Assembly: GCA_041645215.1 (NCBI GenBank)
Contig: JBAZQK010000007.1
Location: 8,976 to 72,975 of the forward strand
Length of the DNA stretch: 64,000 nucleotides
Origin: Patescibacteria group bacterium
GTDB taxonomy: Bacteria; Patescibacteriota; Patescibacteriia; Veblenbacterales; UBA10138
Reading direction: 5' to 3'
The notes under the pieces are model-generated. The model made no database searches, had not been told where the DNA came from, and worked only from the letters and a program-made list of their open reading frames with translations. The position numbers and the translations under genes are program-made. This document shows positions 7,451 to 63,168 of the stretch, piece after piece (the first letter of the stretch is position 1; each line of letters opens with the position of its first letter).

Positions 7451-8228
7451 ATTTTTTCTCCTTTGTATTTTTGTATTATCGTGTTAACCACGCATCACAA
7501 TGGGTGCCTGGCACTGCACATTGATACAAAGAAAAATAGTCCAGTTATACCACAGACTACGCTTCCTCCCCCAGCCTAAAAACTGGGGTTCCTATAGACG
7601 ACTGACTAGGATATTTTGTCAAACCCGTAAGTCCTGAATAAATTAACGACGCAAACAGCCGATTCATTTTGAATCAGCTATTTTATTTGTAAAAACTCAT
7701 TAGTAAAATTGCTCCGCTGCGGTGACCGGATTTATTTTACTAATGATAATTCAGTTTAAAGAAAAGACAATCACGCCAGCTAACGAGCCTGACGAGCGCT
7801 GCCGAAACAAGCGGCGCTGTCAGCGCCGCTTGTTTCGTAATTCGTATTTCACCCTGCGGGTGACCACCCGCCATTCGGCCTCGACGAGTTCGACAGAGGT
7901 TCACTCCAAGTCCTCATGGCCAAGAGGTAGAGCGACTTGATTCGTAATTCGGATTGCTATTAACGCGCAAAACTAACTTCAGGGAATTATGTCCGGCCGG
8001 ACATATTTCCCTGAAGCATCTTGCGGCGAGGTGAGTGAATTTACTCTCCCTTGTTCACCTTTTTGAGGACTACGGCAACCCGCCATCGGCCTCTTATAAT
8101 TGATGATTACTGCTTAGTGCTGTAGTTTTCTATTTAATAGCATCGTTTACTTTGTACAGGCTTAGGCAGGCGGGGGGGGGAAATTCCGCCGAGATACCAT
8201 CCCCCGGTACTTCGGGATGGAACTTTAT

Positions 8229-9670: not shown

Positions 9671-9853
9671 TTCCTGCCCGCTCCGTCATGGCTTCGCCAG
9701 ATCTCGTCGTCGCTACGCAAGATCTCGCGAAGCGAGACAGAGCGATGACTAAGCGGGGCCCGCCGCTAGCCTTACCCGATAGCTGAACCGATACCAGACT
9801 ACAATACTTTTATTTATAGTTAGAGCGTGTTTGACACAGCAGCTTTGGCAGGC
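9671..9853 (+). repeat. Z-family repeat copy (cctgcccgc...gctagccttaccc...tttatagttagag...ctttggcaggcggg)
   Basis: It shares the 45-nt segment tttatagttagagcgtgtttgacacagcagctttggcaggcggg with 1695-1745 (reverse orientation), and its termini with 9988-10098 and 47622-47736. Confidence 0.6.
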
Positions 9854-9987
9854 GGGTTTAATCAATTTTACTAATTCGTGATTCGCTAATCGTTCTTCGC
9901 TACTCGTATTTAATATACGAACCCGCGAGTTGCGAAGCCACGATAAACGATTATTAATTATTAAATTAAAATTCAATAAAAATTTAA

Positions 9988-10098
9988 AATTGCCTGCCCG
10001 CCGCTCGCCTCATTCAATTAACTGATTGCTATAAAATTATAGTACTAATATTTATAGTTAGAGTTTATCCAAAACATAAGCTTTGGCAGGCGGGTAAA
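9988..10098 (+). repeat. Z-family repeat copy
   Basis: It runs from cctgcccgccgctcgcc to tttatagttagagtttatcc...ctttggcaggcggg, tandem to the 9671-9853 copy in the murG-murC spacer. Confidence 0.55.
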
Positions 10099-10105
10099 TT
10101 AAAAA

Positions 10106-11176
10106 TTACCTTGCTTTATTCCGTTGTAATAAACCAATTATCTGCGCAACTATTTTTTCAGCGGCGTCATTATTCAGCAATTTGTGTAAATTGCTTCCAA
10201 GTGTAACCGCCGCCTCTGACAACAAAAGCTGTCTTAGAGTATCAACAAACATCTCAGCCGTCAAGCTATTTTGCGGCAAAACCGCCGCCGCCTGGTTCTG
10301 TTTGAGCCAAGCCGCGTTGTCCTCCTGATGCGTATCGGGAATTGGTATTACGATAGTTGGTTTACTGGCGGCCGCCAACTCACTAATGGCTCCCATACCG
10401 CCCCGGGTGACTGCCAAATCAGACGCCGCGATTAAGGTTATCATATCATTTGACAACGGAACTGATAAATAATTTTCCCGCTCTCTCTCCTCGCCTTTAT
10501 GCAAACCGGTCAGATGAATAACTTGGCTGAATTCGGTTAACTGTTTGATGGTGCGCGAAATCAAGCCGTTGATATAAACGGCGCCGGTGCCGCCGCCCAT
10601 TATCAATAAAGTCGGCCAATCAGGCTTAAGACCAAGTTTAATTCGCGCCGCGGCCTGATTGGGTAGGTCGGCAAAACCTGGCCGCACCGGATTGCCGGTT
10701 AATACCGTTTTGCGCGCGGGAAAATTAGCAACCGCTATCGGCCAGGCGACAGTTATTAAATTGGCTGCCGGCGTCAGCAACTTATTGGCTAAACCGGACC
10801 GAACATCAGCTTGATGGATAAGTTGCGGAACACGATAACACCAGGCGGCCCAACCAACCGGCACGGCCACAAAGCCGCCGGCTGACATTACAAAATCCGG
10901 GCGCTTAAGGCCAAACCGCCAGAGCGCCGCAAAAAATCCCCGCCCAATTGAAAACAAATCAGTCAGATTGCGCCAACTCCAATAACGGCGGAACTTTCCG
11001 GCCGGAATGGCGACAAACTTCCAACCCTTGAACTTGATAAGATTTTTTTCCGGACCAGCTTTAGTCCCCCACCATTCAATCCGCAAAGACGGCTCTGATT
11101 TTTGCCATACTTCAGCCACGGCAATCAGGGGTGTAACCGAACCGAGCGTACCGCCGCCCACACAAACCAGCTTCAT
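10106..11176 (-). CDS. murG: UDP-GlcNAc:undecaprenyl-PP-MurNAc-pentapeptide GlcNAc transferase
   Basis: GT28 motifs 'GGGTLGSVTP' and 'GGMGAISE' are present, in dcw-cluster context. Confidence 0.9.
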   Translation of the reverse strand: MKLVCVGGGTLGSVTPLIAVAEVWQKSEPSLRIEWWGTKAGPEKNLIKFKGWKFVAIPAGKFRRYWSWRNLTDLFSIGRGFFAALWRFGLKRPDFVMSAGGFVAVPVGWAAWCYRVPQLIHQADVRSGLANKLLTPAANLITVAWPIAVANFPARKTVLTGNPVRPGFADLPNQAAARIKLGLKPDWPTLLIMGGGTGAVYINGLISRTIKQLTEFSQVIHLTGLHKGEERERENYLSVPLSNDMITLIAASDLAVTRGGMGAISELAAASKPTIVIPIPDTHQEDNAAWLKQNQAAAVLPQNSLTAEMFVDTLRQLLLSEAAVTLGSNLHKLLNNDAAEKIVAQIIGLLQRNKAR

Positions 11177-15280: not shown

Positions 15281-15460
15281 CCATCCTCCTTGGCGGATAG
15301 CATCTTCATGTTCTGCGGCGCCCGTCCTCCGTCCTCCCAAGGAGGACTACGGAGGATGGAGAACCCGTTAAAGCCTATCCTCCTTGCCTACTGAAACCAT
15401 AGTCCCGATGTACAAAAAGGACGAGGGCCGGGCGTTCACCTTCTTGAGGACGGTAGCAGG
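15281..15460. repeat. P-family palindromic repeat element (core GTCCTCC-N-GGAGGAC)
   Basis: Core gtcctcccaaggaggac at 15331-15347. It shares 25 nt (cggcgcccgtcctccgtcctcc) with 53210-53235. The 21-mer gtcccgatgtacaaaaaggac is the reverse complement of 20484-20504. Confidence 0.65.
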
Positions 15461-18440: not shown

Positions 18441-18605
18441 AGGACTTACGCGTTTGAGCCAAGTTCGAGGCAAAACCGAGCATTTGAGCGAGCCGTAGTA
18501 AAACTACGGTGAACGAAAAGCGGAGGTTTTAACGAAGAAATTGGCCAAAGCCGCTTGAGGGGTCGTCCCTGCGCCAGCCCGGCAAGCGGCAAGCGCGTAA
18601 GTCCT
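18441..18605 (+). mobile_element. X-family MITE-like element copy X1 (TIR aggacttacgcg / cgcgtaagtcct)
   Basis: A 165-bp element. Its reverse complement recurs at 26209-26371 at about 90% identity. Central hairpin ccgtagtaaaactacgg. Confidence 0.75.
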
Positions 18606-23151: not shown

Positions 23152-24210
23152 ATGCTTTTTCAACCCCGCACCGATCATATTGGTTTGGACATCAGTGACC
23201 ATTCTTTAAAGGCCGTTCAATTTATTAAAACCCTAAACGGCCGGCTTAAACTGGTTGGGTTAAGCGCGCAGTATCTTGCCGATGGCATAATTAAAGACGG
23301 CACAATCAAAAACACCGTTGCTTTCACCAAAGCGGTCAGTCAATTACTGCTTAAACCGACTTGGGGTAAATTTACCACCAATTTAATCGTCGCCTCACTG
23401 CCGGAAAGTCGGACTTTCATAAAAATGATTACGGTGCCCTCTTCCAATCAAGATATCGCTCAAGCGGTTAAATGGGAAGCTCAACATCATATTCCCCTGC
23501 CGTTGGAGGATACTTACTGGGATTGGCAAACCATTAAATCAACCCCCAATTTTGACAATAGCCGCCAGCCGATTTTACTGGCAGCCGCCCCCAAAGACAT
23601 CGTTGAATCATATAACCAGGCTCTTAATCAAACTCATTTAACTGCCATTGCGATGGAAATTGAAGCTCAAGCTATTGTTAGAAGCTTAATTCCCATTAAC
23701 CAAGTTAATCAGACTGAAGCCACTATGATAATAGATATTGGCGGCGACCACACCAGTCTCATAATGTTCAGTTTTGACACCATTCAATTTACCGTATCTC
23801 TGCCCATATCGGGACGCGCTATCACTCAAACAGTGGCCGACACTATAAAACTTGACGCGACCCAAGCTGAATTAGCCAAAATTAAATATGGTCTTGACCC
23901 GTCGGCACAGCACGGCGCAATTTATAAAATTCTCCAAAATATGACCAACGAACTGGTTCATCGACTTCAAGAATCACTGGTTTTTTACCAAGAACACTTT
24001 CCCAACAACCCGCCGGCGACCTCAATAATACTTTGCGGGGGCGCGGCTAATTTAAAAAAAATCGACCAATTACTGGCGGCCGAAATGAAAATTCCCGTCC
24101 GCTTAGGAAATCCGTGGTGTAATGTTTCGGCTAATGTCAACCCTCGGCCCGAGGCCGATGCCTTATCCTACACCACGGCCATTGGGTTGGCGCTGCGCGA
24201 TTTAATTTAA
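23152..24210 (+). CDS. pilM: Type IV pilus assembly protein PilM (actin-like ATPase fold)
   Basis: 'IGLDISDHSLKAVQ' N-terminus; 'IDIGGDHTSL'; a C-terminal 'CGGAANL' motif. Confidence 0.85.
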   Translation: MLFQPRTDHIGLDISDHSLKAVQFIKTLNGRLKLVGLSAQYLADGIIKDGTIKNTVAFTKAVSQLLLKPTWGKFTTNLIVASLPESRTFIKMITVPSSNQDIAQAVKWEAQHHIPLPLEDTYWDWQTIKSTPNFDNSRQPILLAAAPKDIVESYNQALNQTHLTAIAMEIEAQAIVRSLIPINQVNQTEATMIIDIGGDHTSLIMFSFDTIQFTVSLPISGRAITQTVADTIKLDATQAELAKIKYGLDPSAQHGAIYKILQNMTNELVHRLQESLVFYQEHFPNNPPATSIILCGGAANLKKIDQLLAAEMKIPVRLGNPWCNVSANVNPRPEADALSYTTAIGLALRDLI

Positions 24211-24240
24211 ATATATGCCCAGTAATACAACTTGGCTAGC

Positions 24241-24626
24241 GCTCGCCCAGTACCAGAGCAAGCACGGTACCGGGCATCACCACTGGAATGTATTGCTAAC
24301 CATCAATGAACGGCAGTATGTCAGAACTTTCATATCTAGCTTATGATTTTAGCGCTCGCCCAGCACCAGAGCCCCGAAGGAGAACAAGTTCCCTACGGGG
24401 CAGGCAAGCACGGTACTCTCGCATCGCTCCAACGGTATATTCCTCATCGGCAGCGAGCGGCCAACAATCCCAATCTTTTGACTATTCTTGGTGCCCAGGG
24501 CTCGCCCAGTACCAGAGCAAGCACGGTACCGGGCATCGCCACTGGAGTACATTGTTTACCGGCAGTGGACGGCAGTAATGTCAATACTCCCATATATAGC
24601 TCTTGGTTCTTGGGCTCGCTTCAACC
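24241..24626. repeat. Tandem array of about 3.3 degenerate 113-146-bp units (T-family) between pilM and pilN
   Basis: Units begin at 24241, 24354 and 24500, each starting gctcgcccag[t/c]accagag, with a truncated start at 24614. The middle unit is nearly identical to 27696-27844. Confidence 0.8.
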
Positions 24627-24730
24627 ACCTTTTATTATAAAATTATGTTTTGTTTAGAATTATTTAATCAATTACCTTTGTTTAACCGCGCTCGCGCTTA
24701 AGGTAGTTTAGCAAAGTTGATATACCGGGT

Positions 24731-25279
24731 ATGCCCAGAATATTACTCAATCTGCTGCCAGCTGAACAAAAAAAATACATTGAAGTAATGTTCAATTACA
24801 AGTATTTGCGCATTATAACTTTTTTGATTCTAACTTTTGCGGTGATAGCGGCCGGGGTAGTGCTAAGCTCCAGGCTTTTACTGCAGGACAACTTAAACGA
24901 CCTGTTAACCAGCAGCTTGGCCATTACGCAAAAAAATACCAATCTTGACCAGCAAATAACCCAACTTAACGCGGAATTAAAAAACATCAGCACTATCCAA
25001 AATGATTTTGTAAAGTGGTCAACGGTAACGGCTAGTATCCTGGCGACTATCCCTTTGAATATTGAACTAAACTACTTCAACATTGAAAAACAAAGCGGCC
25101 GCCTTGATCTTAACGGTCGGGCCCGGGAACGGACCGACTACCTTAAATTAAGCGAAAATTTAAGCCAACTGACGTACTTGGAAAAATTAAACTCACCCTT
25201 GACCAATCTATTGTTGCGCCAGAATGTTGACTTCCAGTTAAACGGACGTATTAATCTGAACAAATTCAGTCAGCCTTAA
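24731..25279 (+). CDS. pilN: Type IV pilus assembly protein PilN
   Basis: N-terminal 'ILLNLLP' (INLLP motif) followed by a TM segment and a coiled coil. Confidence 0.75.
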   Translation: MPRILLNLLPAEQKKYIEVMFNYKYLRIITFLILTFAVIAAGVVLSSRLLLQDNLNDLLTSSLAITQKNTNLDQQITQLNAELKNISTIQNDFVKWSTVTASILATIPLNIELNYFNIEKQSGRLDLNGRARERTDYLKLSENLSQLTYLEKLNSPLTNLLLRQNVDFQLNGRINLNKFSQP

Positions 25280-26208: not shown

Positions 26209-26371
26209 TAGGCTTACGCGCTTGCCGCTTGCAGGGCGGGCAAAGCCCGACCCTCAAGCGGCTTTGGCCAATTTCTTTGTTAAAACCTCCGCTTTTCGCT
26301 CACCGTAGTTTTACTACGGCTCGCTCAAATGCTCGGTTTTGCCTCGAACTTGGTTCAAACCCGTAAGCCTA
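26209..26371 (-). mobile_element. X-family MITE-like element copy X2, inverted relative to X1
   Basis: taggcttacgcg...cgtaagccta. It is the reverse complement of 18441-18605 and abuts the stop codon of the 25840-26208 ORF. Confidence 0.75.
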
Positions 26372-27403: not shown

Positions 27404-27462
27404 AAATACATAATAATGGCAAAACCCGCCCTTGACTAGGTTATTATTATTAATTATACTTA

Positions 27463-27637
27463 GAGATGGTTCCAAAACTCTTTCGTGGCGAAATTTCAGT
27501 TTTTCTTGCGAGACGAGGAAGGCGAGCAAAAAGAATTGAAACGTAGTAGAACTACGGTGAAATCCTTTTTGCGAAGCCTGACGAAGTCGCAGCCGAAAAG
27601 ATGAAATTACAGCAGAAATGAGTTTTGAAACCATCTC
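27463..27637 (+). mobile_element. Y-family MITE-like element copy Y1 (TIR gagatggttccaaaactc / gagttttgaaaccatctc)
   Basis: 175 bp. Its reverse complement recurs at 60048-60222. The central hairpin cgtagtagaactacggtgaa is shared with the X family. Confidence 0.75.
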
Positions 27638-27695
27638 TTAGTCTCGCTTTCATAATTCTCAATTCTTGCCCAGTATAACTACTTATGTTATAGTT

Positions 27696-27844
27696 CGCCC
27701 AGTACCAGAGTCCCGAAGGAGAACAAGTTCCCTACGGGGCAGGCAAGCACGGTACTCTCGCATCGCTCCAACGGTATATTCCTCATCGGCAGCGAGCGGC
27801 CAACAATCCCAATCTTTTGACTATTCTTGGTGCCCAGGGCTCGC
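27696..27844. repeat. Solo copy of the T-family middle unit
   Basis: About 147 nt, identical to 24354-24499 except for 2 C/T transitions. Confidence 0.8.
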
Positions 27845-27976
27845 TTTTAAAATAAAATTTATAAATGAGCTAAGCAACTTATTCAATCGTTATCTCTTAC
27901 TAACTACTTAATCTAAGCTCGCTAAATTTTATTTAACAAAGTTGTTATACTGGACTTGATTCATAATTATTAATTT

Positions 27977-28262: not shown

Positions 28263-28360
28263 TTATGAAGCCTCCACGGGCTTACGCCCGAGGTATCCTT
28301 CATTTTTTCGGCGAAATCCGCCGAAGTCCTCCCAAGGAGGACGAAGGCGGATAAAATTCA
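28263..28360. repeat. P-family palindromic repeat element
   Basis: Core gtcctcccaaggaggac at 28326-28342, flanked by atccgccgaag / cgaaggcggat. Confidence 0.6.
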
Positions 28361-28422: not shown

Positions 28423-30078
28423 CTAACTGCCCTTCCCAATATCAACGCCGCTATTAAGCTGGGCTACGGCCGCGGCCATAAAATCGCGGAATAAAGGATG
28501 CGGACGCAAGGGTCGGGATTGAAATTCCGGATGAAACTGCACCCCCACAAACCACGGATGGTCGCGGAGCTCCACAATCTCTACCAGGTGACCGTCGGGC
28601 GAAGTGCCGGAAATAACCAAGCCGACTTTTTCCAAGCGGACGCGATAAGCGTTATTGAATTCATAACGGTGGCGGTGGCGTTCGGAAATCTCGCTTTTAC
28701 CATAAGCCTCATAAGCTTTGGTACCCTTAAGCAAACGGCAGTCCCAGGCCCCCAACCGCATCGTCGCGCCATAATCCTTAGCTAACATTTTCTTTTCTTG
28801 GTCCGGCATTATATGGATAACCGGGTGTTTGGTTTTAGGATCAATTTCCGTGGAATTAGCATCGGCCATATCAGCTAAATGACGGGCGATTTCCACGGTA
28901 GCCAGTTGCATACCATAACACAACCCCAAAAAAGGCATACTATTCTCGCGGGCATACTTAATAGCCGCCACGATTCCTTCCGTCCCCCGCCCGCCAAAGC
29001 CGCCGGGTACCACCAACCCCGCCATATTTTTTAAATATTTTTCCGCGCCGTCAGCTTCTATTTTTTCCGAATCAACCCAATGTAATTTTGGTTTAACTCC
29101 ATTGGCCCAGCCGGCGTATTTAAGCGACTCTATCACTGATACGTAAACATCTGACAAAACATAATCGCCAGTTGCAAAGTATTTGCCCACAATGGCAATC
29201 GACACTTCCGGTTTATCGGTTTTGACAACTTCAGCCAACTTTTGCCAATCATTTAAATCTTTACCCTTGGGCTTAAGGCGAAACTTTTTTAAGACTCTAT
29301 CGGCAAAGGCTTGCTCGTCAAATTTTAAAGCCACGTCATAAACCGATTCCAAATCAGGATTGGAAATAATATCATCGCTGTCCATATTACAAAACAAAGC
29401 TAACCGCTCCTTGCGTTTGCGGTCAAGCGGTTTCTCGGCGCGGGCCACCAAAAAATCCGGCTGAATACCCATACTATTCAACAATCGGACTGACATCTGC
29501 ACTGGTTTGGATTTCATTTCACCGACGGTCGGCGGCGTTGGCAAATAAGCCACATGTACCTGTAACACACTGTCTTTATCGCGTAATTTCATAATACGCG
29601 ATGATTCATAATAAAAAATATTTTGGTATTCCCCGGCGGTTCCACCCAGCTCGATTATAACAATATCAGCCCGCGATTTGCGACCGGCATTTTTAACGCG
29701 CCGAATAATTTCATCGCATAAATGCGGGATAGCTTCCACATCCTCACCTTCATAACCAAAAGCTCGCTCCTTGTCTATCACCGTCTTATAAACCTGCCCC
29801 ATCGTTATAAAATTGTCGCCGGACAGCGGCAAATCCAAAAATCTTTCATAAGTCCCGATATCTTGGTCGGTCTCAAGGCCGTCATCACAGACAAATACTT
29901 CTCCGTGCTCCGTCGGCCGGATCGTGCCAGCGTCCACATTCAAATAATTCTCACACTTAACCGGACACACCCGATAACCTTTGCTCTGCAATAATTTAGC
30001 TAACGACGCCGCCGCTATCCCCTTGCCAACGGACGACATTACGCCGCCGGAAATAAAAATGTACTTGATTTTCGCCAT
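28423..30078 (-). CDS. pyrG: CTP synthase. The track ORF uses GTG at 30114, inside a repeat; the likely start is 'MAKIKYIF' at 30078.
   Basis: 'KYIFISGGVMSSVGKG', a glutamine amidotransferase 'GLCYGMQ' and 'FHPEF' are present. Confidence 0.93.
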   Translation of the reverse strand: MAKIKYIFISGGVMSSVGKGIAAASLAKLLQSKGYRVCPVKCENYLNVDAGTIRPTEHGEVFVCDDGLETDQDIGTYERFLDLPLSGDNFITMGQVYKTVIDKERAFGYEGEDVEAIPHLCDEIIRRVKNAGRKSRADIVIIELGGTAGEYQNIFYYESSRIMKLRDKDSVLQVHVAYLPTPPTVGEMKSKPVQMSVRLLNSMGIQPDFLVARAEKPLDRKRKERLALFCNMDSDDIISNPDLESVYDVALKFDEQAFADRVLKKFRLKPKGKDLNDWQKLAEVVKTDKPEVSIAIVGKYFATGDYVLSDVYVSVIESLKYAGWANGVKPKLHWVDSEKIEADGAEKYLKNMAGLVVPGGFGGRGTEGIVAAIKYARENSMPFLGLCYGMQLATVEIARHLADMADANSTEIDPKTKHPVIHIMPDQEKKMLAKDYGATMRLGAWDCRLLKGTKAYEAYGKSEISERHRHRYEFNNAYRVRLEKVGLVISGTSPDGHLVEIVELRDHPWFVGVQFHPEFQSRPLRPHPLFRDFMAAAVAQLNSGVDIGKGS

Positions 30079-30220
30079 ACCCAGTATATCAACTTGGCTT
30101 AACCACCTCAGCACGAGCGTGGTTAGACAAGAATAAATGATTAAATGATTTTAGAAAAGACATAAAGTTATAATAGCTGGTGGTTAGGGCGAGTGCTAGC
30201 CAAGTTGTATTACTGGGCAT
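30079..30220 (+). mobile_element. W-family MITE-like element copy W1 (TIR acccagtatatcaacttggc / gccaagttgtattactgggcat)
   Basis: A 142-bp element that starts directly at the pyrG start codon. Its termini recur at 30221/30472, 47465/47610 and 24217-24242. Confidence 0.75.
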
Positions 30221-30472
30221 ACCCAGTATATCAACCCCGTAGAATCACGGCGGATACATCGATCAACCGTAATGTCCGGATTAATTGTAAGTAATTTGCG
30301 ATTTTCATAAATATTGATTGTCCGCCGTAACTCTACGGGGTCAACTTGGCTTAACCACCTCAGCACGAGCGTGGTTAGACAAGAATAAATGATTAAATGA
30401 TTTTAGAAAAGACATAAAGTTATAATAGCTGGTGGTTAGGGCGAGTGCTAGCCAAGTTGTATTACTGGGCAT
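30221..30472 (+). mobile_element. W-family copy W2, interrupted by nested element V
   Basis: Same termini and internal sequence as W1 (aaccacctcagcacgagcgtggttagacaag...). A 105-bp insertion lies after position 15. Confidence 0.75.
30236..30340. mobile_element. Nested 105-bp V element with TIR cccgtagaatcacggcgg / ccgccgtaactctacggg, flanked by the 5-bp direct repeat 'tcaac'
   Basis: W2 reads ...tatatcaac[V]tcaacttggc..., while the uninterrupted W1 reads tatatcaacttggc. That leaves a clean 5-bp target-site duplication. Confidence 0.7.
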
Positions 30473-47464: not shown

Positions 47465-47610
47465 ACCCAGTATATCAACTTCGCTGACAAAATTAGCGAG
47501 CGTGAGTTGAAAGACTGTTTAGTAAATAAATGATAATTTAAATCTGGTTAAGATATTAATTGCACTAATTTGGTTAAAAGCGAGCTATAGCGAAGTTATT
47601 ATACTGGGCA
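47465..47610 (+). mobile_element. W-family copy W3 (conserved termini, divergent interior)
   Basis: acccagtatatcaacttcgc ... gcgaagttattatactgggc. Confidence 0.6.
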
Positions 47611-47621
47611 AAATGTAAAAA

Positions 47622-47736
47622 CCTGCCCGACGCTAGCCTTACCCAATTAACCAATAGTTGTCCAATGACCTTATATATATTCATCGCTAGATTATGTTTA
47701 AGACTTTGGCTTTGGCAGGCGGGTCAAAATGGAAAA
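47622..47736 (+). repeat. Z-family repeat copy
   Basis: cctgcccgacgctagccttaccc...ctttggctttggcaggcggg. Confidence 0.55.
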
Positions 47737-49355: not shown

Positions 49356-51665
49356 TTGACTGCTGTCTTAATGGTCGCGGCCAAATCAGCAAAAAGTGCT
49401 ACAATAAATTATATGCCAACTACTTTATTAGCCAGCCTGCTCGGTTTAATACTAAGCCTAAACCTGTGGCTGGTGCATTCCCTTATTCTTGGCTTACTGG
49501 TCGGGTTCGCGTATTTATGGCTAACCGGCACACTCTGGAGCGAACGATTAAAACTAAATAGCTGGTTGGAAAAGTTTGTTATCGGTAGTATCAGTTTAAT
49601 GGCCGCTGTCATAATTATCAGCACCATTGGTTTTTATATTGGCCTATTTAATAAATACCTCATCGGCCTACTATTGGTAGCCTTACCTTTGGCTGGCCAA
49701 TTTAAACAAGTCAAATTTACCCTCCTCCGCAAGCGACAGCGAGCGGAGAATGATCAGCCTGTAAAAGCGGGAATGAATGAGGATATCCTCCGTAGCCTTG
49801 GCGAAGAAGGATATGCTGCGGAGGGTTCTGCCCGACGAAACATGGTGAGAGGTGCCACGAGCAGCCTACTCCGTCCTCCTAAGGAGGACGGAGTAGGCTG
49901 GGTAAGCCTGTGGAACTCAACTTTGGCCGCCGCCTTAGCCATTACCTGGCAAAAAATACTCACACTGACGCTCTTTATCATTTTAGCCGGCTTAACCAGT
50001 TACAGCCTTTACTATGTGTTAAGCAATGAAGCCCTGCGCACACCCTGGCAGGTTGTGTTGCCAATAACTTTCGCACTTTATGCCGGCGCCGTCGCCGCTT
50101 GGCTAATAGTCAGCCGCTATTTCAAAGCCGGCGGCCTAATATTACTTTATTTGATAAGTTCAAGTGTATTGCCGCTAGTCTACGCTTTGGGTTATGGCTT
50201 TGACCCGTTTATTCACCAAGCCACGGCTAAAATTTTAGCTAACACCGGCACCATTGACCCTAAACCCTTATATTACATTGGCCAGTACGTAATCGTGGTA
50301 ATAATCAACTGGGTCACGGCTCTGCCTATTAACCTCATAGATAAATGGCTGTTGCCGATTTTAACCAGTTTGATTCTGCCTGTGCTCACGGTACGAAAAC
50401 TAAAACAGACCGCCACGGATAATTATCTACTGGTACTGGCTGGAGCCTTGCCATTAATTTTTTTGCTCAGTCAATTCACTTACACCACCCCGCAGGGTTT
50501 AGCTAATTTATTAGCCTTAGTTCTAATTTTTACTTGGTTTAAAAATAATGACGGCGTTCACCTGCCTATTTGGTTTAGCTGGCTAGTGGCGCTAGCTGGC
50601 GTGGCCGTTCATCCCCTGACAGGACTGCCTCTGCTGGGATTAAATACCATTTGGCAAATATACCAAAGCAATCTTAAACTAAATATCAAAAAATGGCTGC
50701 TGGGTTTGGCGGCCACGGCCACGGCCTTAGTGGTACCGCTCGGATTCGCGGTGATGTCCTGGCTCAAACCGTCAGCCGCCAGTATTAAATTATCATTTGA
50801 CTGGTGGAATAGTTTGGCGCGCCTTGGTAGCAATCTGGCTGGAGCTTTGCCGATTTTACCGCCCTATACTGAAGTGGCTGACGTGGTTTATTTATGGGGC
50901 CGGCCGTTGGTTTTAATAATTGTGGCGTTAGCGGCTTGGGGCTGGTACCGCACTAGCAAATACCGCTTGGGCGCCGGATTTTTAATCACCAGCTTTGGCT
51001 TGCTGACTTTGAGTTATTTGCTTTTAAATTTATTTGCCAAATTTCCTAATCTGCCGACCAATGAGCAGAATTTTTATGCGGCGCGTTTATGGGAGTTGGC
51101 TTTGTTCACACTCTGGCCGTTGGCGCTCTATGGCGGATATCAAATTATCCATTATGTTTGGTACGAACGGCGCGCGCCTTATTTAGTGAGTGTAAGTTTA
51201 GTGTTAATATTAACAGCCTCATTTTACCTGACTTACCCCAGGCTGGATGTTTATCATCGCGATACCGGCTACAACACCACGCCCGATGATGTGCAAGCCG
51301 TAAAACTGATAAATAATGTTGGCGCCAATGGCAATTATGCCGTGCTCGCCAATCAGGCGGTCGCCGCCGCCGCCATCAAGACGTACAGTTTCAACAAATA
51401 CTTTGGACAAAATTTTTACTACCCCCTGCCGACCGGAACTAATCCATTGTACCAGGTCTATTTGAACGCGGCCGAGCGCGGATTGCCGACGCGTGCGACC
51501 ATTAAAACCGCGGCTGATATCACCGGCGCGCCGCAAATTTTTTTGGTTTTGAATAAATACTGGGCAAACTTTGACAAACTTACCGTCGTCGCCGACAGCG
51601 CCGCCAACCAAAAATGGCTGGTAGGCGACGGCCGTATTGCCATTTACCGCTACGATTTTAAATAA
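49356..51665 (+). CDS. Large polytopic membrane protein (possible GT-C-like or polymerase). The likely start is Met20 at 49413.
   Basis: About 14 TM segments. It contains an in-frame P-family repeat encoding a hydrophilic loop (49740-49905). Confidence 0.5.
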   Translation: MTAVLMVAAKSAKSATINYMPTTLLASLLGLILSLNLWLVHSLILGLLVGFAYLWLTGTLWSERLKLNSWLEKFVIGSISLMAAVIIISTIGFYIGLFNKYLIGLLLVALPLAGQFKQVKFTLLRKRQRAENDQPVKAGMNEDILRSLGEEGYAAEGSARRNMVRGATSSLLRPPKEDGVGWVSLWNSTLAAALAITWQKILTLTLFIILAGLTSYSLYYVLSNEALRTPWQVVLPITFALYAGAVAAWLIVSRYFKAGGLILLYLISSSVLPLVYALGYGFDPFIHQATAKILANTGTIDPKPLYYIGQYVIVVIINWVTALPINLIDKWLLPILTSLILPVLTVRKLKQTATDNYLLVLAGALPLIFLLSQFTYTTPQGLANLLALVLIFTWFKNNDGVHLPIWFSWLVALAGVAVHPLTGLPLLGLNTIWQIYQSNLKLNIKKWLLGLAATATALVVPLGFAVMSWLKPSAASIKLSFDWWNSLARLGSNLAGALPILPPYTEVADVVYLWGRPLVLIIVALAAWGWYRTSKYRLGAGFLITSFGLLTLSYLLLNLFAKFPNLPTNEQNFYAARLWELALFTLWPLALYGGYQIIHYVWYERRAPYLVSVSLVLILTASFYLTYPRLDVYHRDTGYNTTPDDVQAVKLINNVGANGNYAVLANQAVAAAAIKTYSFNKYFGQNFYYPLPTGTNPLYQVYLNAAERGLPTRATIKTAADITGAPQIFLVLNKYWANFDKLTVVADSAANQKWLVGDGRIAIYRYDFK
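49740..49905. repeat. P-family palindromic element inserted in-frame in a CDS
   Basis: The perfect 33-nt palindrome cctactccgtcctcctaaggaggacggagtagg lies at 49865-49897. It encodes '...RGATSSLLRPPKEDGVGW...'. Confidence 0.6.
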
Positions 51666-52420: not shown

Positions 52421-53713
52421 TCAAGAGCTCAATCGAGCTAACAAACTTGTAAGTTCGCGCGCGTAATCAGCCAAATTACTGGCTGAACTATTTTGTTTGG
52501 TATGACTGGCGGCGGCCGCCAATAAACTTGGGTTATCCAAACACCTATTAAGTTTTTGCGTAAACTCGGCCTCACTGCCGGGCGTGAACATCCAACCATT
52601 AACCCCCTCCTCCATAAGTTCCGGAATTCCGCCGCTTTGTGAGGCCAGCACCGGCGTACCCTGAACTTTAGCCATGGTAATAATGGTGGGCGCGTTTTCT
52701 AAACACAATGACGGTACGATTGCCAGGTGACTGTCGGCAATATAATTGTCAATTTCGGCTTGCGTGACAGTACGGTTAAGGGCAAAACGTTTATCGTCAC
52801 CAATCAAATTAACCAGCCGGGCCCAATTGTCCAGCGCGCCGACCGCTACAATTCGCAATGACCAATCACTCCGTGAACTTTTTTTAAGTGTTTGCACCAA
52901 CCAAAATATACCCTTATGCTCTTGAATCTGCCCGACGTATATCAAATTAACCAGACCCAGCGGCTTAAAGACCGATAGCGGGGCGGCCAGTGGCGGAACC
53001 GGATTGGGTATTACCTTAATTTCACTATTTTTAAAAAATCCCCGACTAATGTGTTCAGCCATCAGCCAACGCGATGGCGCCACCACAATATTTACCGGCT
53101 GGAATAACCAACGGGTAATAAACTGATAAACCTTAACGATTAAATTTTCATAACTCTCCTCAACCTGAAGCTTCCACGGGCTCATCCCGCCGTCTATGGT
53201 ATATTTCATTTCGGCGGCGCCCGTCCTCCGTCCTCCTTGGGAGGACGAGGGTGGATAAAATAAACCCGAGGGGTGTAGCAGTTGGACATCGTGCAAGGTG
53301 TGAAGATGTTTAAGCGACAGCGACTTAATGGCGCGCGGCAACCAAAACGACAAGCCCATCAAGTTAAAACTAATCACCGCCGCCGGCTTAACTTTTGCCA
53401 AAATTCGCCTGACCTGCCCCGCCGCCAGCCAATTAAACAAATTTATTTTATGCCAAACTAATCGCCACCCTAAACCATGGCGGGCGGCGTTAAGGTAATA
53501 ATAAACATTCAGCGGATAAAACCGATAAACCGCTATTTTATGCTCAATTCGGCAATCAGTTTTAAAACTACGCAAAGCCTGCCAGGGCGCGCTGGTAATA
53601 ACCGACACCTCATGTCCTTGATTAATCAATTCGACCGCTAACTGACTGGCGATGTATTCGGCGCCGCCGCGCCCGAACGGCGGATAAAGATTGGAAATTA
53701 TCGTGATTTTCAT
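52421..53713 (-). CDS. Glycosyltransferase family 4, with an in-frame repeat insertion
   Basis: GT4 C-terminal 'ASQSGGIPELMEEGVNG'. P-family core at 53230-53246 encodes 'PPSSSQGGRRTGAAE'. Confidence 0.82.
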   Translation of the reverse strand: MKITIISNLYPPFGRGGAEYIASQLAVELINQGHEVSVITSAPWQALRSFKTDCRIEHKIAVYRFYPLNVYYYLNAARHGLGWRLVWHKINLFNWLAAGQVRRILAKVKPAAVISFNLMGLSFWLPRAIKSLSLKHLHTLHDVQLLHPSGLFYPPSSSQGGRRTGAAEMKYTIDGGMSPWKLQVEESYENLIVKVYQFITRWLFQPVNIVVAPSRWLMAEHISRGFFKNSEIKVIPNPVPPLAAPLSVFKPLGLVNLIYVGQIQEHKGIFWLVQTLKKSSRSDWSLRIVAVGALDNWARLVNLIGDDKRFALNRTVTQAEIDNYIADSHLAIVPSLCLENAPTIITMAKVQGTPVLASQSGGIPELMEEGVNGWMFTPGSEAEFTQKLNRCLDNPSLLAAAASHTKQNSSASNLADYARELTSLLARLSS

Positions 53714-60033: not shown

Positions 60034-60047
60034 AGTTATGTTACTCT

Positions 60048-60222
60048 GAGATGGTTTCAAAACTCATTTCTGCTGTAATTTCATCTTTTCGGCTGCGACT
60101 TCGTCAGGCTTCGCAAAAAGGATTTCACCGTAATTATACTACGTTTCAATTCTTTTTGCTCGCCTTCCTCGTCTCGCGAGAAAAACTGAAATTTCGCCAC
60201 GAAAGAGTTTTGGAACCATCTC
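60048..60222 (-). mobile_element. Y-family copy Y2 (inverted relative to Y1)
   Basis: Reverse complement of 27463-27637. Confidence 0.75.
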
Positions 60223-60260
60223 TCTAAGTTTAATGTAGCAATAATCTAATTTTAACTGAT

Positions 60261-60762: not shown

Positions 60763-63027
60763 TTAACGGGCTGTACCAACGGTTAAACCGCCCCGCCAAT
60801 TTTTGGGTTCAATAAAAAAACTTGACATAACTTGATTCTGACCATTAAACACTCGCACTTGCGGTCCGCCGCCCACGCCGGGGGTGGCCACTATTTCGCG
60901 GCTGCCATTACCATCGGTATCACCCACCGCCACGTTCACGCCGCCCCGGAAATTTTTAGCAAAGGCAAAAAACTGACGCAGAACGCGACCCTGATAATTA
61001 AACACTCGCACTTGCGGTCCGCCGCCGGCTCCGGGAGCAACTACTATTTCCGCCTTGCCGTCGCCATCGGTATCACCCACCGCCACGTTCACGCCGCCCG
61101 GGAAAGCCCAGGAAAAAGCGTAAAACTCGCTCCTTTTATTACCAAACTTGTCAAATACGCGAATCGGCAAACGCAAATTACCCGCGGGCGCGGTTACTAT
61201 TTCCGGCTGGCCGTCGCCGTCAGTATCGCCCACCGCCACGTTCACACCGCCAATATAAGACGGGTCGTACGGTATGAACTGGTACAGAATATTTCCCGCT
61301 TCATCATAAATTCTAACTAAATTAGAGCCGCCTTTGCCAACCCCAATTACAATCTCGTCTTTTTTATCAGCTGTAAAATCCGCCACCGCCACGCTCAAAC
61401 CACCCCGAAACTGTTCGGGCAAGGCCATAAATTGCGATTCCAACCCGCCTTTTAAATTAAAAATTTTGACATGCGGACCGCCGCCGGCCCGCGGCACAGT
61501 GACAACGTCAATTTGCCCGTCGCCATCCACATCACCGGCCGCCACATTAATGCCTTTGGTATAGCGCGCGTCATAGGCCAAAAACTTTTGCATTAATTCA
61601 CTGGATAAATCGTACAGCGCTATTTCCGCCGTGGCGTTAGTCTGCGGCGCTAAAAAAATCGGCGTCTTGCGGCTAAAGACTTTACTGCCGGCCAGCGCAA
61701 AGGCTTTTTGCAAATTCAGCCGGCGTCCCAACTGCCCCACCTGTCCCGGATTGGCATTGTCAACTAAATCGCCCGCGGCAATTAACACATCGCGCAGTTG
61801 TGACGGCGATAAATTGGGATAGGCTGATTTTAACAAGGCCAGCGAACCTGACACTAACGGCGCCGCCACTGATGTGCCCGACCAATAACCGCCATAATAA
61901 TCCTGAAACAAATTGTTGGCTTTATCAACAAACTGGGTACTATAAATTTTTACGCCCGGCGCCGCCAAATCAATGCACTTGGAACCAAAATTGGAAAACT
62001 CGGCTCGCACGTCGTTATCATCCACCGCCGCCACGCCAATCACCTGATTTTCACCATTAAACCCGTCACTACAAACCGGATAGTGCGGCTGCTTGTTCAT
62101 ATCTACGCCCATTTGCTGTTCATTACCCGCCGCCGCCACCACCAAAATGCCGGCCTGATAAGCGCGCTGAATCGCATCTTCCAAAATTGGGTCGGAAAAC
62201 TGACCGACAAAACTCAAATTGATAATATCGGCATGGTTAGCAATTGCGTACTGAATGCCGCGCGCTACCGTTACCGTGTCGCCCAAGCCACGGCCGTCCA
62301 ACACCCGAATGGGCATAAGGCGGGCATGCCAAGCCAGGCCCGCCACGCCTTGAACATTATTGCCGATGGCCGCGGCCACGCCGGCCACAATCGTGCCGTG
62401 GTTCATCGCCACCTCATTCCAACCGGCGTCAAACTTTGGTTCAGGGTCGGCCACATTGGCCACAAAATCCCAACCGTTCAGGTCGTCAATATAGCCGTTT
62501 TTATCATTGTCTTGTTTGTCGTTCGGCACCTCCCACGGATTAAACCAAATATTGCTGGCCAAATCCGGATTGCTGACATCGACGCCAGTATCAAGCACGG
62601 CGATTACGGAACGAATGGTTTGACTTTGCGGAACATCCCACGCCGCCGGGGCTTTAATCTTATCATAATAATTTTTTTGGAAATTGTAATCCAAATCATT
62701 TGGAATCAGGGCTAAACTGTACTGACGCACGGGCGCGACTAACTTAATGCCCGTCTGCTTGTTTAAATAAGCCTGCGCGGTTTGGGAGTTTAGCCGCTCG
62801 GAACAGCGATAACGCACAATTTGTGATGATGTCGTTACTGCCGCCAAATCGCACGGCGCCGCTACTTTAACCACCGCATCATTAACCACCGCGCCAGTAA
62901 TTTCCGCCGCCGGCAGCTTAGTAAATCCATTGTCAGCCCCATTAACGTTAGCTCCATTAACCAAAAACCCGAGCGCAACTGCCGGGACCACAAGCCAAAT
63001 AATTGTTCTGACTGGTCGTGAATTCAT
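60763..63027 (-). CDS. Secreted subtilisin-like (S8) serine protease fused to a C-terminal FG-GAP/VCBS repeat beta-propeller. The likely start is 'MNSRPVRTIIWLVV'.
   Basis: S8 triad context 'AVLDTGVD', 'HGTIVAGVAAA', 'GTSVAAPLVSG'. Then about 6-7 repeats 'GDTDGDG(Q/K)(P/A)EIV' and 'FRGGVNVAVGD'. Confidence 0.85.
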   Translation of the reverse strand: MNSRPVRTIIWLVVPAVALGFLVNGANVNGADNGFTKLPAAEITGAVVNDAVVKVAAPCDLAAVTTSSQIVRYRCSERLNSQTAQAYLNKQTGIKLVAPVRQYSLALIPNDLDYNFQKNYYDKIKAPAAWDVPQSQTIRSVIAVLDTGVDVSNPDLASNIWFNPWEVPNDKQDNDKNGYIDDLNGWDFVANVADPEPKFDAGWNEVAMNHGTIVAGVAAAIGNNVQGVAGLAWHARLMPIRVLDGRGLGDTVTVARGIQYAIANHADIINLSFVGQFSDPILEDAIQRAYQAGILVVAAAGNEQQMGVDMNKQPHYPVCSDGFNGENQVIGVAAVDDNDVRAEFSNFGSKCIDLAAPGVKIYSTQFVDKANNLFQDYYGGYWSGTSVAAPLVSGSLALLKSAYPNLSPSQLRDVLIAAGDLVDNANPGQVGQLGRRLNLQKAFALAGSKVFSRKTPIFLAPQTNATAEIALYDLSSELMQKFLAYDARYTKGINVAAGDVDGDGQIDVVTVPRAGGGPHVKIFNLKGGLESQFMALPEQFRGGLSVAVADFTADKKDEIVIGVGKGGSNLVRIYDEAGNILYQFIPYDPSYIGGVNVAVGDTDGDGQPEIVTAPAGNLRLPIRVFDKFGNKRSEFYAFSWAFPGGVNVAVGDTDGDGKAEIVVAPGAGGGPQVRVFNYQGRVLRQFFAFAKNFRGGVNVAVGDTDGNGSREIVATPGVGGGPQVRVFNGQNQVMSSFFIEPKNWRGGLTVGTAR

Positions 63028-63168
63028 TAATACTATTATGACAAAAAATCGCTCATAAGGGAAGAGGTTATTCATTTAGCGATGATAATAATTTTATCAA
63101 AATCGCCGCCGCCACATCTTAAAAAAATAAGACCAAACAAAAAACAATTAAATTTTAAAACACCCGAC

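Follow-up and report, generated by a model that had tools for sequence, protein, structure and literature searches.

A probable pile-up of nested MITE-like elements between pilM and pilN in a Kerfeldbacteria-like CPR genome

Genomes of CPR bacteria (Patescibacteria) are tiny and are usually described as poor in mobile DNA. Among the short mobile elements described in other bacteria, Correia elements bear promoters and adjoin the 5′ sides of genes, clusters of MITEs inserted into one another are known, and Rickettsia palindromic elements (RPEs) insert in frame and add a hydrophilic peptide (PMC10969869). REP sequences are reported to carry a GTAG or CGTC tag (PMC3733652). Our literature searches, with sequence strings and for MITEs in Patescibacteria, returned nothing relevant, and matches to shorter strings were unrelated. 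Here we compare with these systems a locus in the window (the whole 64-kb stretch of DNA that was analyzed) where three repeat units, A, B, and C, lie head to tail in the spacer between pilM and pilN.

With a probability of roughly 80%, the array is a pile-up of non-autonomous MITE-like transposable elements nested two layers deep. Its units represent a new family of such elements, in the genome of a Kerfeldbacteria-like CPR bacterium. As in other MITEs, the elements are small, non-coding, and present in multiple copies, end in terminal inverted repeats, occur in both layers as empty and filled sites with target duplications, and are polymorphic in presence or absence between strains.

The array is as the earlier note described it from the sequence, and an independent ENA assembly (L001) matches the window with 100% identity over 14.4 kb that include it. 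An 18-mer, GCTCGCCCAGYACCAGAG, starts at 24241, 24354, and 24500, with a one-mismatch copy at 27693 (four matches in the 64-kb window against 0.01 expected by chance). These 18-mers had been taken as the unit starts, but the biological boundaries lie a few nucleotides further in, with CTCG between neighbors and no unique spacers. On the plus strand, units A (24246-24354, 109 nt) and C (24505-24614, 110 nt) are of a short type, the former with a decayed 3′ inverted repeat (AGCTTATGATTTTAGCG versus the consensus AGCTCTTGGTTCTTGGG) and the latter with both inverted repeats intact. Unit B (24359-24500, 142 nt) is of a long type and has a 33-nt hairpin inserted in the loop of its core hairpin. A fourth and last unit seen in the window, the solo unit S (27698-27839, plus strand), is 98.6% identical to B in BLAST searches of the units against the window and differs from it, as first noticed, by two C/T changes. 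The first CTCG target copy is inside GCTCGC (24242-24245) and the last duplication copy is at 24615-24618. The latter had been read as a truncated fourth start at 24614; it is followed by the host cassette, and the identical sequence occurs in empty cassettes. Tandem Repeats Finder did not report the array, which is too divergent for it. A scan of genome contigs with the 18-mer gave at least two real loci (L064 and L115) among the matches listed, most of which are chance matches in G+C-rich genomes.

Across 12 long units from nine contigs (the window and related contigs), all start with CCCAG and end with GGG. CTCG is on the right side of all 12 and on both sides of 10. They are 107-142 nt long and have no conserved ORF, and their 5′ 40 nt and 3′ 16 nt are conserved around a variable interior. 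The terminal inverted repeats, CCCAGTACCAGAGC and GCTCTTGGTTCTTGGG, form 13 pairs in which 90% of cells are paired, compared to 27-56% when the 3′ partner is slid as a control. There is no covariation in this pairing, as expected of conserved inverted repeats and not of an RNA helix. In BLAST comparisons, A and C are 84% identical, and what B shares with them is limited to its first 19 nt and a 13-mer, GCAAGCACGGTAC (∼30 nt). The units abut, and outside the shared 19 + 13 nt they consist of unit body; the earlier statement that this is not a CRISPR array holds.

The units are located exactly at the first GCTCGC of a host cassette that is itself MITE-like (24218-24729, plus strand) and would measure ∼139 nt if empty, as judged from inverted-repeat matches and empty copies in contigs L142 and L188. 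Its left inverted repeat is CCCAGTAATACAACTTGGC, which is what had been called a W-family terminus preceding the array, and its right inverted repeat is GCAAAGTTGATATACCGGG. After the last copy of GCTCGC, the cassette resumes with TTCAACCACC; in empty cassettes, GCGCTCGC is joined directly to TTCAACCACC. We read the anatomy of the cassette from two tandem empty copies between rplI and pyrG (30079-30469, minus strand) and from a further empty copy of 143 nt in the 47.4-kb spacer (47466-47608, plus strand). An empty cassette (∼140 nt) consists of CCCAGTAATACAACTTGGC, GCTCGC, ∼65 A+T-rich nucleotides, GCTCGYGC, and a right inverted repeat GCMAAGTTGATATACYGGG. Termini of the family in the window are CCCAGTAAWACAACTT… and …AAGTTGWTATACYGGG, with terminal inverted repeats of ∼20 nt (CCCAGTA...TACYGGG) and a 4-bp duplication that at several loci reads TATG/TATG, TAAG/TAAG, or CTTG/CTTG. 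The solo unit S sits in a second, CTTG-flanked host cassette upstream of rpmA (27669-27954, plus strand). Cassettes are single or in tandem, and the same site can hold different subtypes in different strains.

A 106-nt hairpin element (CCCCGTAGAGTTACGGCGGA…TCCGCCGTGATTCTACGGGG; 30235-30340, minus strand), flanked by duplicated TTGA, interrupts one of the tandem pyrG cassettes within its right inverted repeat, which adds a third family to the nested elements.

At least seven different genes, among them pilN and pyrG (ATG at 30078), have their ATG directly next to the right inverted repeat of a cassette; in our reading of the sequence, pyrH- and mraY/wecA-like genes also belong to these. A motif, TGnTATAC(C/T), is present in the right end 4 nt before the ATG and may serve as an extended −10 promoter from which pilN is transcribed with almost no leader; a consensus scan did not call it, and the 4 nt that separate the −10-like hexamer from the ATG are few for a promoter. 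As for the genes on either side, Pfam bears out pilM (23152-24210, plus strand; PilM_2, E = 8e-41), which is upstream of the insertion, and has no hit for the downstream gene of 182 aa (24731-25279), which we call pilN-like from synteny and its N-terminus, MPRILLNLLP. The first codons of this gene (24731-24745, ATGCCCAGAATATTA) resemble the left inverted repeat of the cassette, ATGCCCAGTAATACA, and its N-terminus may derive from the remnant of another cassette.

Empty and filled sites can be compared directly. Contig L142 has three tandem cassettes that are near-identical to the pilM-pilN cassette of the window. Two are empty and read GCGCTCGC followed by TTCAACC, and the third holds a B-type unit and reads GCGCTCGC, 140 nt, and …GGGCTCGC followed by TTCAACC. 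Likewise, the rplI-pyrG cassette is empty in the window and its ortholog in Kerfeldbacteria NC_groundwater_1725 (L115) has one short-type unit. In both comparisons, CTCG is found once in the empty cassettes and twice around a unit. Single units occupy this CTCG in eight other contigs, and the site orthologous to that of the solo copy has a short-type unit in L170 versus the long-type unit in the window.

The cassette layer shows the same pattern at the pilM-pilN junction. In NC_groundwater_1725 (L190), whose PilM is 65% identical and whose gene order from pilM to rplI is unchanged relative to the window, the two genes are separated by 4 nt, and the junction reads TAAattTATGcc. In NC_groundwater_1726 (L191), pilM and pilN overlap by 8 nt. 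The window instead reads TAAataTATG[512 nt]TATGccc, with the left TATG at 24214-24217 and the right at 24730-24733, which supplies the pilN-like gene with its start codon (ATG at 24731). Comparison to the cassette-free sequence of L190 thus indicates that a cassette inserted at TATG and duplicated it while the ATG of pilN was kept. A contig from another sample, L188, has a PilM that is 99% identical and flanking DNA that is 99.4% identical to the window, and its spacer of 289 nt is made up of two cassettes, both empty and different in subtype from that of the window, with a TATG at every junction; units are missing. The solo unit is missing as well, and all that L188 retains upstream of rpmA is a cassette remnant of 62 nt. 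At the site of the window's element at 26226-26361 it has a bare terminator-like hairpin. Comparing related genomes for copy-number variation, as had been proposed, uncovers it: the array and S are absent in L188, and the array is absent in L190 and L191. These differences in L188, at the spacer, the rpmA site, and the 26226-26361 element, mean that the content of the pilM-pilN spacer is recent, variable, and dispensable. Three overlapping ORFs listed across the array had been called spurious, and they probably are: they lie wholly in repeat DNA that the near-identical L188 lacks.

We propose the following order of events. A cassette of ∼140 nt would insert at the TATG that overlaps the start codon of pilN and duplicate it, turning a 4-nt junction into a long spacer with the ATG retained. 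Units of 107-142 nt would then enter one CTCG, within the GCTCGC near the left end of the cassette, and duplicate it in turn. Because each insertion would regenerate CTCG on both sides, repeated hits would stack head to tail, and a target regenerated at every insertion would account for an array with shared GCTCGC borders. Unit A would be an old copy whose 3′ end has decayed, C an intact short copy, and B a long-type copy with its near-identical sister 3 kb away. Head-to-tail order and shared 6-nt borders would also follow from a local tandem duplication, by slippage or unequal crossing-over at GCTCGC, with later divergence and no transposition. In its favor, A and C are of one type, and near-identical whole cassettes do exist in tandem (three in L142 and two in the pyrG spacer). 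We nevertheless consider a local origin of the array very unlikely, since B is of another subfamily, single units occupy the same CTCG elsewhere, unit types differ at orthologous sites, and empty sites are precise. Serial insertion fits better with a sister of B that is 3 kb off, a decayed A, and an intact C, and the earlier view of a degenerate tandem array formed by duplication is not upheld, since the nearest relative of B is not adjoining. A and C could still have descended from an older duplication.

The location of the array within an operon and a transcript that would hold several stable hairpins (−51.7 kcal/mol and z = −2.6 for B) could also suggest a cis-regulatory or small-RNA module of the pilus operon, such as an attenuator, a terminator, a processing site, or an sRNA array. 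MITEs elsewhere are cleaved by RNase III or bear promoters (PMC10969869). Against such a module, there is no plus-strand terminator-like site (a G+C-rich hairpin with a U tract) in 23900-25000. Rfam has no match at gathering score in the whole window and, for the spacer at E ≤ 10, only a chance hit at E = 6. The RNAalifold consensus of the 12 units retains one conserved hairpin per unit, at the 5′ end, and consists of a single 5-bp stem, GTACC/GGTAC, with no covariation and a middle that is not conserved, and we reject a structured ncRNA on this basis. Units A and C fold no better than shuffled sequences (z = −0.7 and −0.8), the same unit family precedes unrelated genes, and the array is missing in the strain with 99.4% identical flanks as well as in other Kerfeldbacteria. 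A regulatory module is thus highly improbable, and the array presumably has no role in the pilus operon. Neither the internal terminator or attenuator nor the small-RNA array put forward in the earlier note is borne out by these results; its third suggestion, a recombination substrate, is close in spirit to our reading of the array as mobile DNA.

The nested elements are presumably mobilized by an enzyme acting in trans. The same termini, CCCAGTA…CTGGG, and a 4-bp duplication are found in cassette and unit alike, which hints at one type of transposase, and a DDE-type enzyme is suggested to move both layers. Pfam searches of 40 of the ∼60 ORFs of at least 110 aa in the window detected no transposase or recombinase and matched only housekeeping families (mur, fts, pilus, sugar-nucleotide, glycosyltransferase, metK, ahcY, and others). 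A parent IS with matching inverted repeats was not found among these 40 ORFs, nor was one enriched among 144 pooled ORFs within 2.5 kb of hairpins at the 49 loci that carry the core hairpin described below; no transposase or recombinase family is enriched in this pool either. In L151, a phage-integrase-like C-terminus lies just upstream of a filled cassette. Viral contigs gave five single matches to the 18-mer, about the number expected by chance, and none to a more specific gapped pattern, and do not support a phage as vector.

The conserved 5′ end of the units is a 30-nt hairpin, CCCAGTACC-AGAGC(R)AAGCAC-GGTACNGGG, and it has a far wider distribution than the units. A search of metagenome contigs with a gapped pattern across the 5′ end of the unit gave 63 matching contigs, 14 of which, with the match in G+C-rich coding DNA, appear to be due to chance. 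The remaining ∼49 are CPR contigs (G+C of 33-52%) that carry the hairpin, in which positions beyond the search pattern are also conserved. The core combines a stem of 9 bp, in which one position is odd, with a conserved internal loop (AGA.../...AC) and a variable second stem, from a GCGAAGC-type mini-hairpin up to 7-10 bp. The stem variant GAACC/GGTTC is compensatory relative to GTACC/GGTAC. Over 384 kb of related loci, a covariance model of the core added hardly any copies, and on account of this low density we reject a high-copy REP-like element or an uptake signal.

Copies of the hairpin occur in frame in the gene for LeuRS and in other ORFs, where they encode …DPSTRAKHGTGQ… (L158 4485-4523; L147 228-266; L148 283-321; L137 1500-1538; L138 903-941; L131 12269-12307). 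All six are in sense orientation, and PSTRA(K/E)HGTG is encoded in five, with L131 in another frame. Alignment of the L158 LeuRS to solved LeuRS structures places a 10-residue insertion exactly at the hairpin, and this insertion is absent in all other 119 closest homologues listed (Parcubacteria- and Nomurabacteria-like; best identity of 71%). An apparent 4-nt duplication around the LeuRS hairpin is attributed to chance and is not reproduced in L147. In the orthologs L147 and L148, the hairpin is identical at 30 of 30 positions and the flanks are 84% and 80% identical; by our own arithmetic on this one orthologous pair, 30 nt would stay unchanged at ∼18% divergence with a probability of ∼0.003.

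Hairpins also interrupt tRNA genes, as inverted doublets at TTCG^A of the T-loop (L160 5093-5255, minus strand; L152 951-1090, plus strand; also L149 and L155). In each case, one copy of a tandem tRNA pair (Ser-GCU or Gly-GCC) is interrupted and the adjacent copy is intact, and the interrupted copy of L152 has a decayed 3′ end. An RNA intron is thereby rejected: interrupted duplicates beside intact copies, one of them decayed, imply insertion at the level of DNA. The hairpin can furthermore be nested in the loop of another copy of itself with a duplication of ∼6 nt (CAGAGC or CAAAGC), and the extra 33-nt hairpin of unit B is of this nested type. Non-coding copies are bordered by short direct repeats that are often A/C-rich and resemble microsatellites, for example CAAATCAC, CAACCTAC, and CAAAACAC (L130-L132, L136, L141, L150, L161-L163, L175, and L180); these repeats might be footprints of repeated insertion and excision.

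These copies bear on which kind of enzyme is responsible. Because the duplicated sequence around units is always the same, CTCG/GCTCGC could be a part of the element or the core site of a recombination instead of a true target duplication. The bare 30-nt hairpin shows no duplication in LeuRS and only CG in tRNA genes, which does not fit a single DDE mechanism with a fixed stagger. Judging from their ends and their 4-bp duplication, the long units seem to behave like DDE-type MITEs; the bare hairpin looks more like a REP, RPE, or GC-cluster element. As an alternative, the units could be substrates of an enzyme that recognizes hairpins in single-stranded DNA, not of a DDE transposase, with an HUH/Y1 transposase (REP-RAYT or IS200/IS605 type) or an integron-like tyrosine recombinase as candidates. 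The 30-nt hairpin would be the recognition module and GCTCGC or CG the cleavage or crossover core. The imperfect hairpin with its conserved internal loop and variable second stem, the compensatory change in the stem, the inverted doublets in T-loops, the LeuRS insertion that lacks a duplication, and the invariant border of the units are all consistent with such an enzyme. We regard it as rather unlikely for the units. The 144 ORFs near hairpins show no enrichment of Y1/RAYT genes or any other single family, although an integrase-like C-terminus does adjoin the filled cassette of L151, and Pfam found none in the 40 window ORFs searched. The core lacks the GTAG or CGTC tag reported for REPs (PMC3733652), some copies are intragenic, and density is low (4 copies in 64 kb, whereas REP/REPIN systems have extragenic copies in the hundreds); a REP/REPIN-RAYT system is rejected on these grounds. 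Long units have inverted-repeat ends, a single conserved 5′ hairpin, and a CTCG that goes from one copy to two on insertion; IS200/IS605 elements have neither such ends nor such a duplication, and a PATE derived from them, which would have subterminal hairpins at its two ends, does not match the units either. Borders are GCTCGC and the RYYYAAC/GTTRRRY core sites of integrons are absent, so the array is not one of attC sites or integron cassettes. For the units, we therefore retain insertion as DDE-type MITEs as the preferred reading.

For the hairpin itself we advance a broader proposal that is tentative, with the odds somewhat against it. The 30-nt hairpin may be what is actually mobilized in a CPR-wide system of mobile DNA that has not been described before: a "nano-element" that relies on an enzyme supplied in trans, possibly by the host. 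Its insertions would include in-frame ones in essential genes and others in T-loops of tRNA genes or in the loop of the hairpin itself, and in Kerfeldbacteria it would have become part of longer units, which target a single site in another MITE. A different possibility is that the hairpin persists because of a function at the level of nucleic acid.

The window contains other repeats. A 136-nt repeat (26226-26361, the element absent from L188, and in inverted orientation 18445-18561; copies 97% identical) is inserted in the loop of a terminator-like hairpin, AGGACTTACGCGCTTGCGTAAGTCCT, and related bare terminator-like hairpins are near 7619, 46555, and 52335. An inverted duplicate of 181 nt (27462-27642 and 60043-60223, 32 kb apart and 97% identical) comprises the 5′ end and upstream region of a C39-peptidase-like gene, and one of the two copies is intergenic. 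Members of a G+C-rich hairpin family (…TCCTCCCAAGGAGGA…; 15311-15357, 28306-28352, 49853-49899, and 53210-53256), some at gene ends, look like terminator-type repeats. An intergenic family, TATTTATAGTTAGAG…GCTTTGGCAGGCGGGT, is found at 9800-9871, 10038-10109, and 47678-47724 and inverted at 1668-1789. Coding repeats with a period of 153 nt (60826-61434) are within a 770-aa subtilase/FG-GAP protein (60763-63075, minus strand).

Between strains with 99% identity, intergenic DNA is here turned over by at least three nested families of small elements. The cassette family splits the normally tight pilMN operon and sets a promoter-like end directly on start codons. Such elements are a natural marker for strain-level population genetics of uncultured bacteria. 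They also explain breaks in assembly, as in two Logan contigs that stop ∼10-45 nt past pilM within the left end of the cassette, as well as probably spurious ORF calls in such MAGs. The hairpin that is shared with the units ties them to distant CPR lineages, where in-frame insertions occur sporadically in essential genes, and is a handle for finding the mobilization enzyme. How a CPR-wide 30-nt hairpin moves is a more interesting question than the array.

Among known systems, yeast mitochondrial mobile GC clusters are like the hairpin in being G+C-rich hairpins of ∼30-50 nt in an A+T-richer genome, in entering coding and RNA genes, sometimes in frame, and in nesting in one another, but they belong to another domain of life and are unrelated in sequence. 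REP/BIME/REPIN sequences with their RAYT resemble it as short imperfect palindromes that form inverted doublets and for which a trans-acting enzyme is presumed; the hairpin differs in tag, density, intragenic copies, and the lack of a RAYT among the ORFs near it. Neisseria Correia elements (CREE/NEMIS) are like the units and cassettes in that they are non-coding, 100-155 bp long, and have inverted repeats of ∼20-26 nt and a short target duplication, and likewise in their position directly upstream of genes, promoter-like ends, and strain-specific presence or absence. Their duplication is TA, whereas here it is 4 bp (TATG, TAAG, or CTTG; CTCG) and the host is a CPR bacterium. Also unlike Correia elements, the cassettes end exactly on start codons and the second-layer element always occupies one site in a first-layer element; we know of no cognate IS element for either. 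RPEs are, like the hairpin, palindromic selfish DNA found in frame in unrelated and even essential genes, and the 10-residue peptide (around PSTRAKHGTG) added to LeuRS recalls the RPE peptide. RPEs measure ∼100-150 bp and are confined to one genus, whereas the hairpin core is 30 nt and occurs in distant CPR lineages, and unlike RPEs it also interrupts tRNA genes in the T-loop and forms the 5′ end of longer units. Of all known kinds, prokaryotic MITEs and RPEs come closest.
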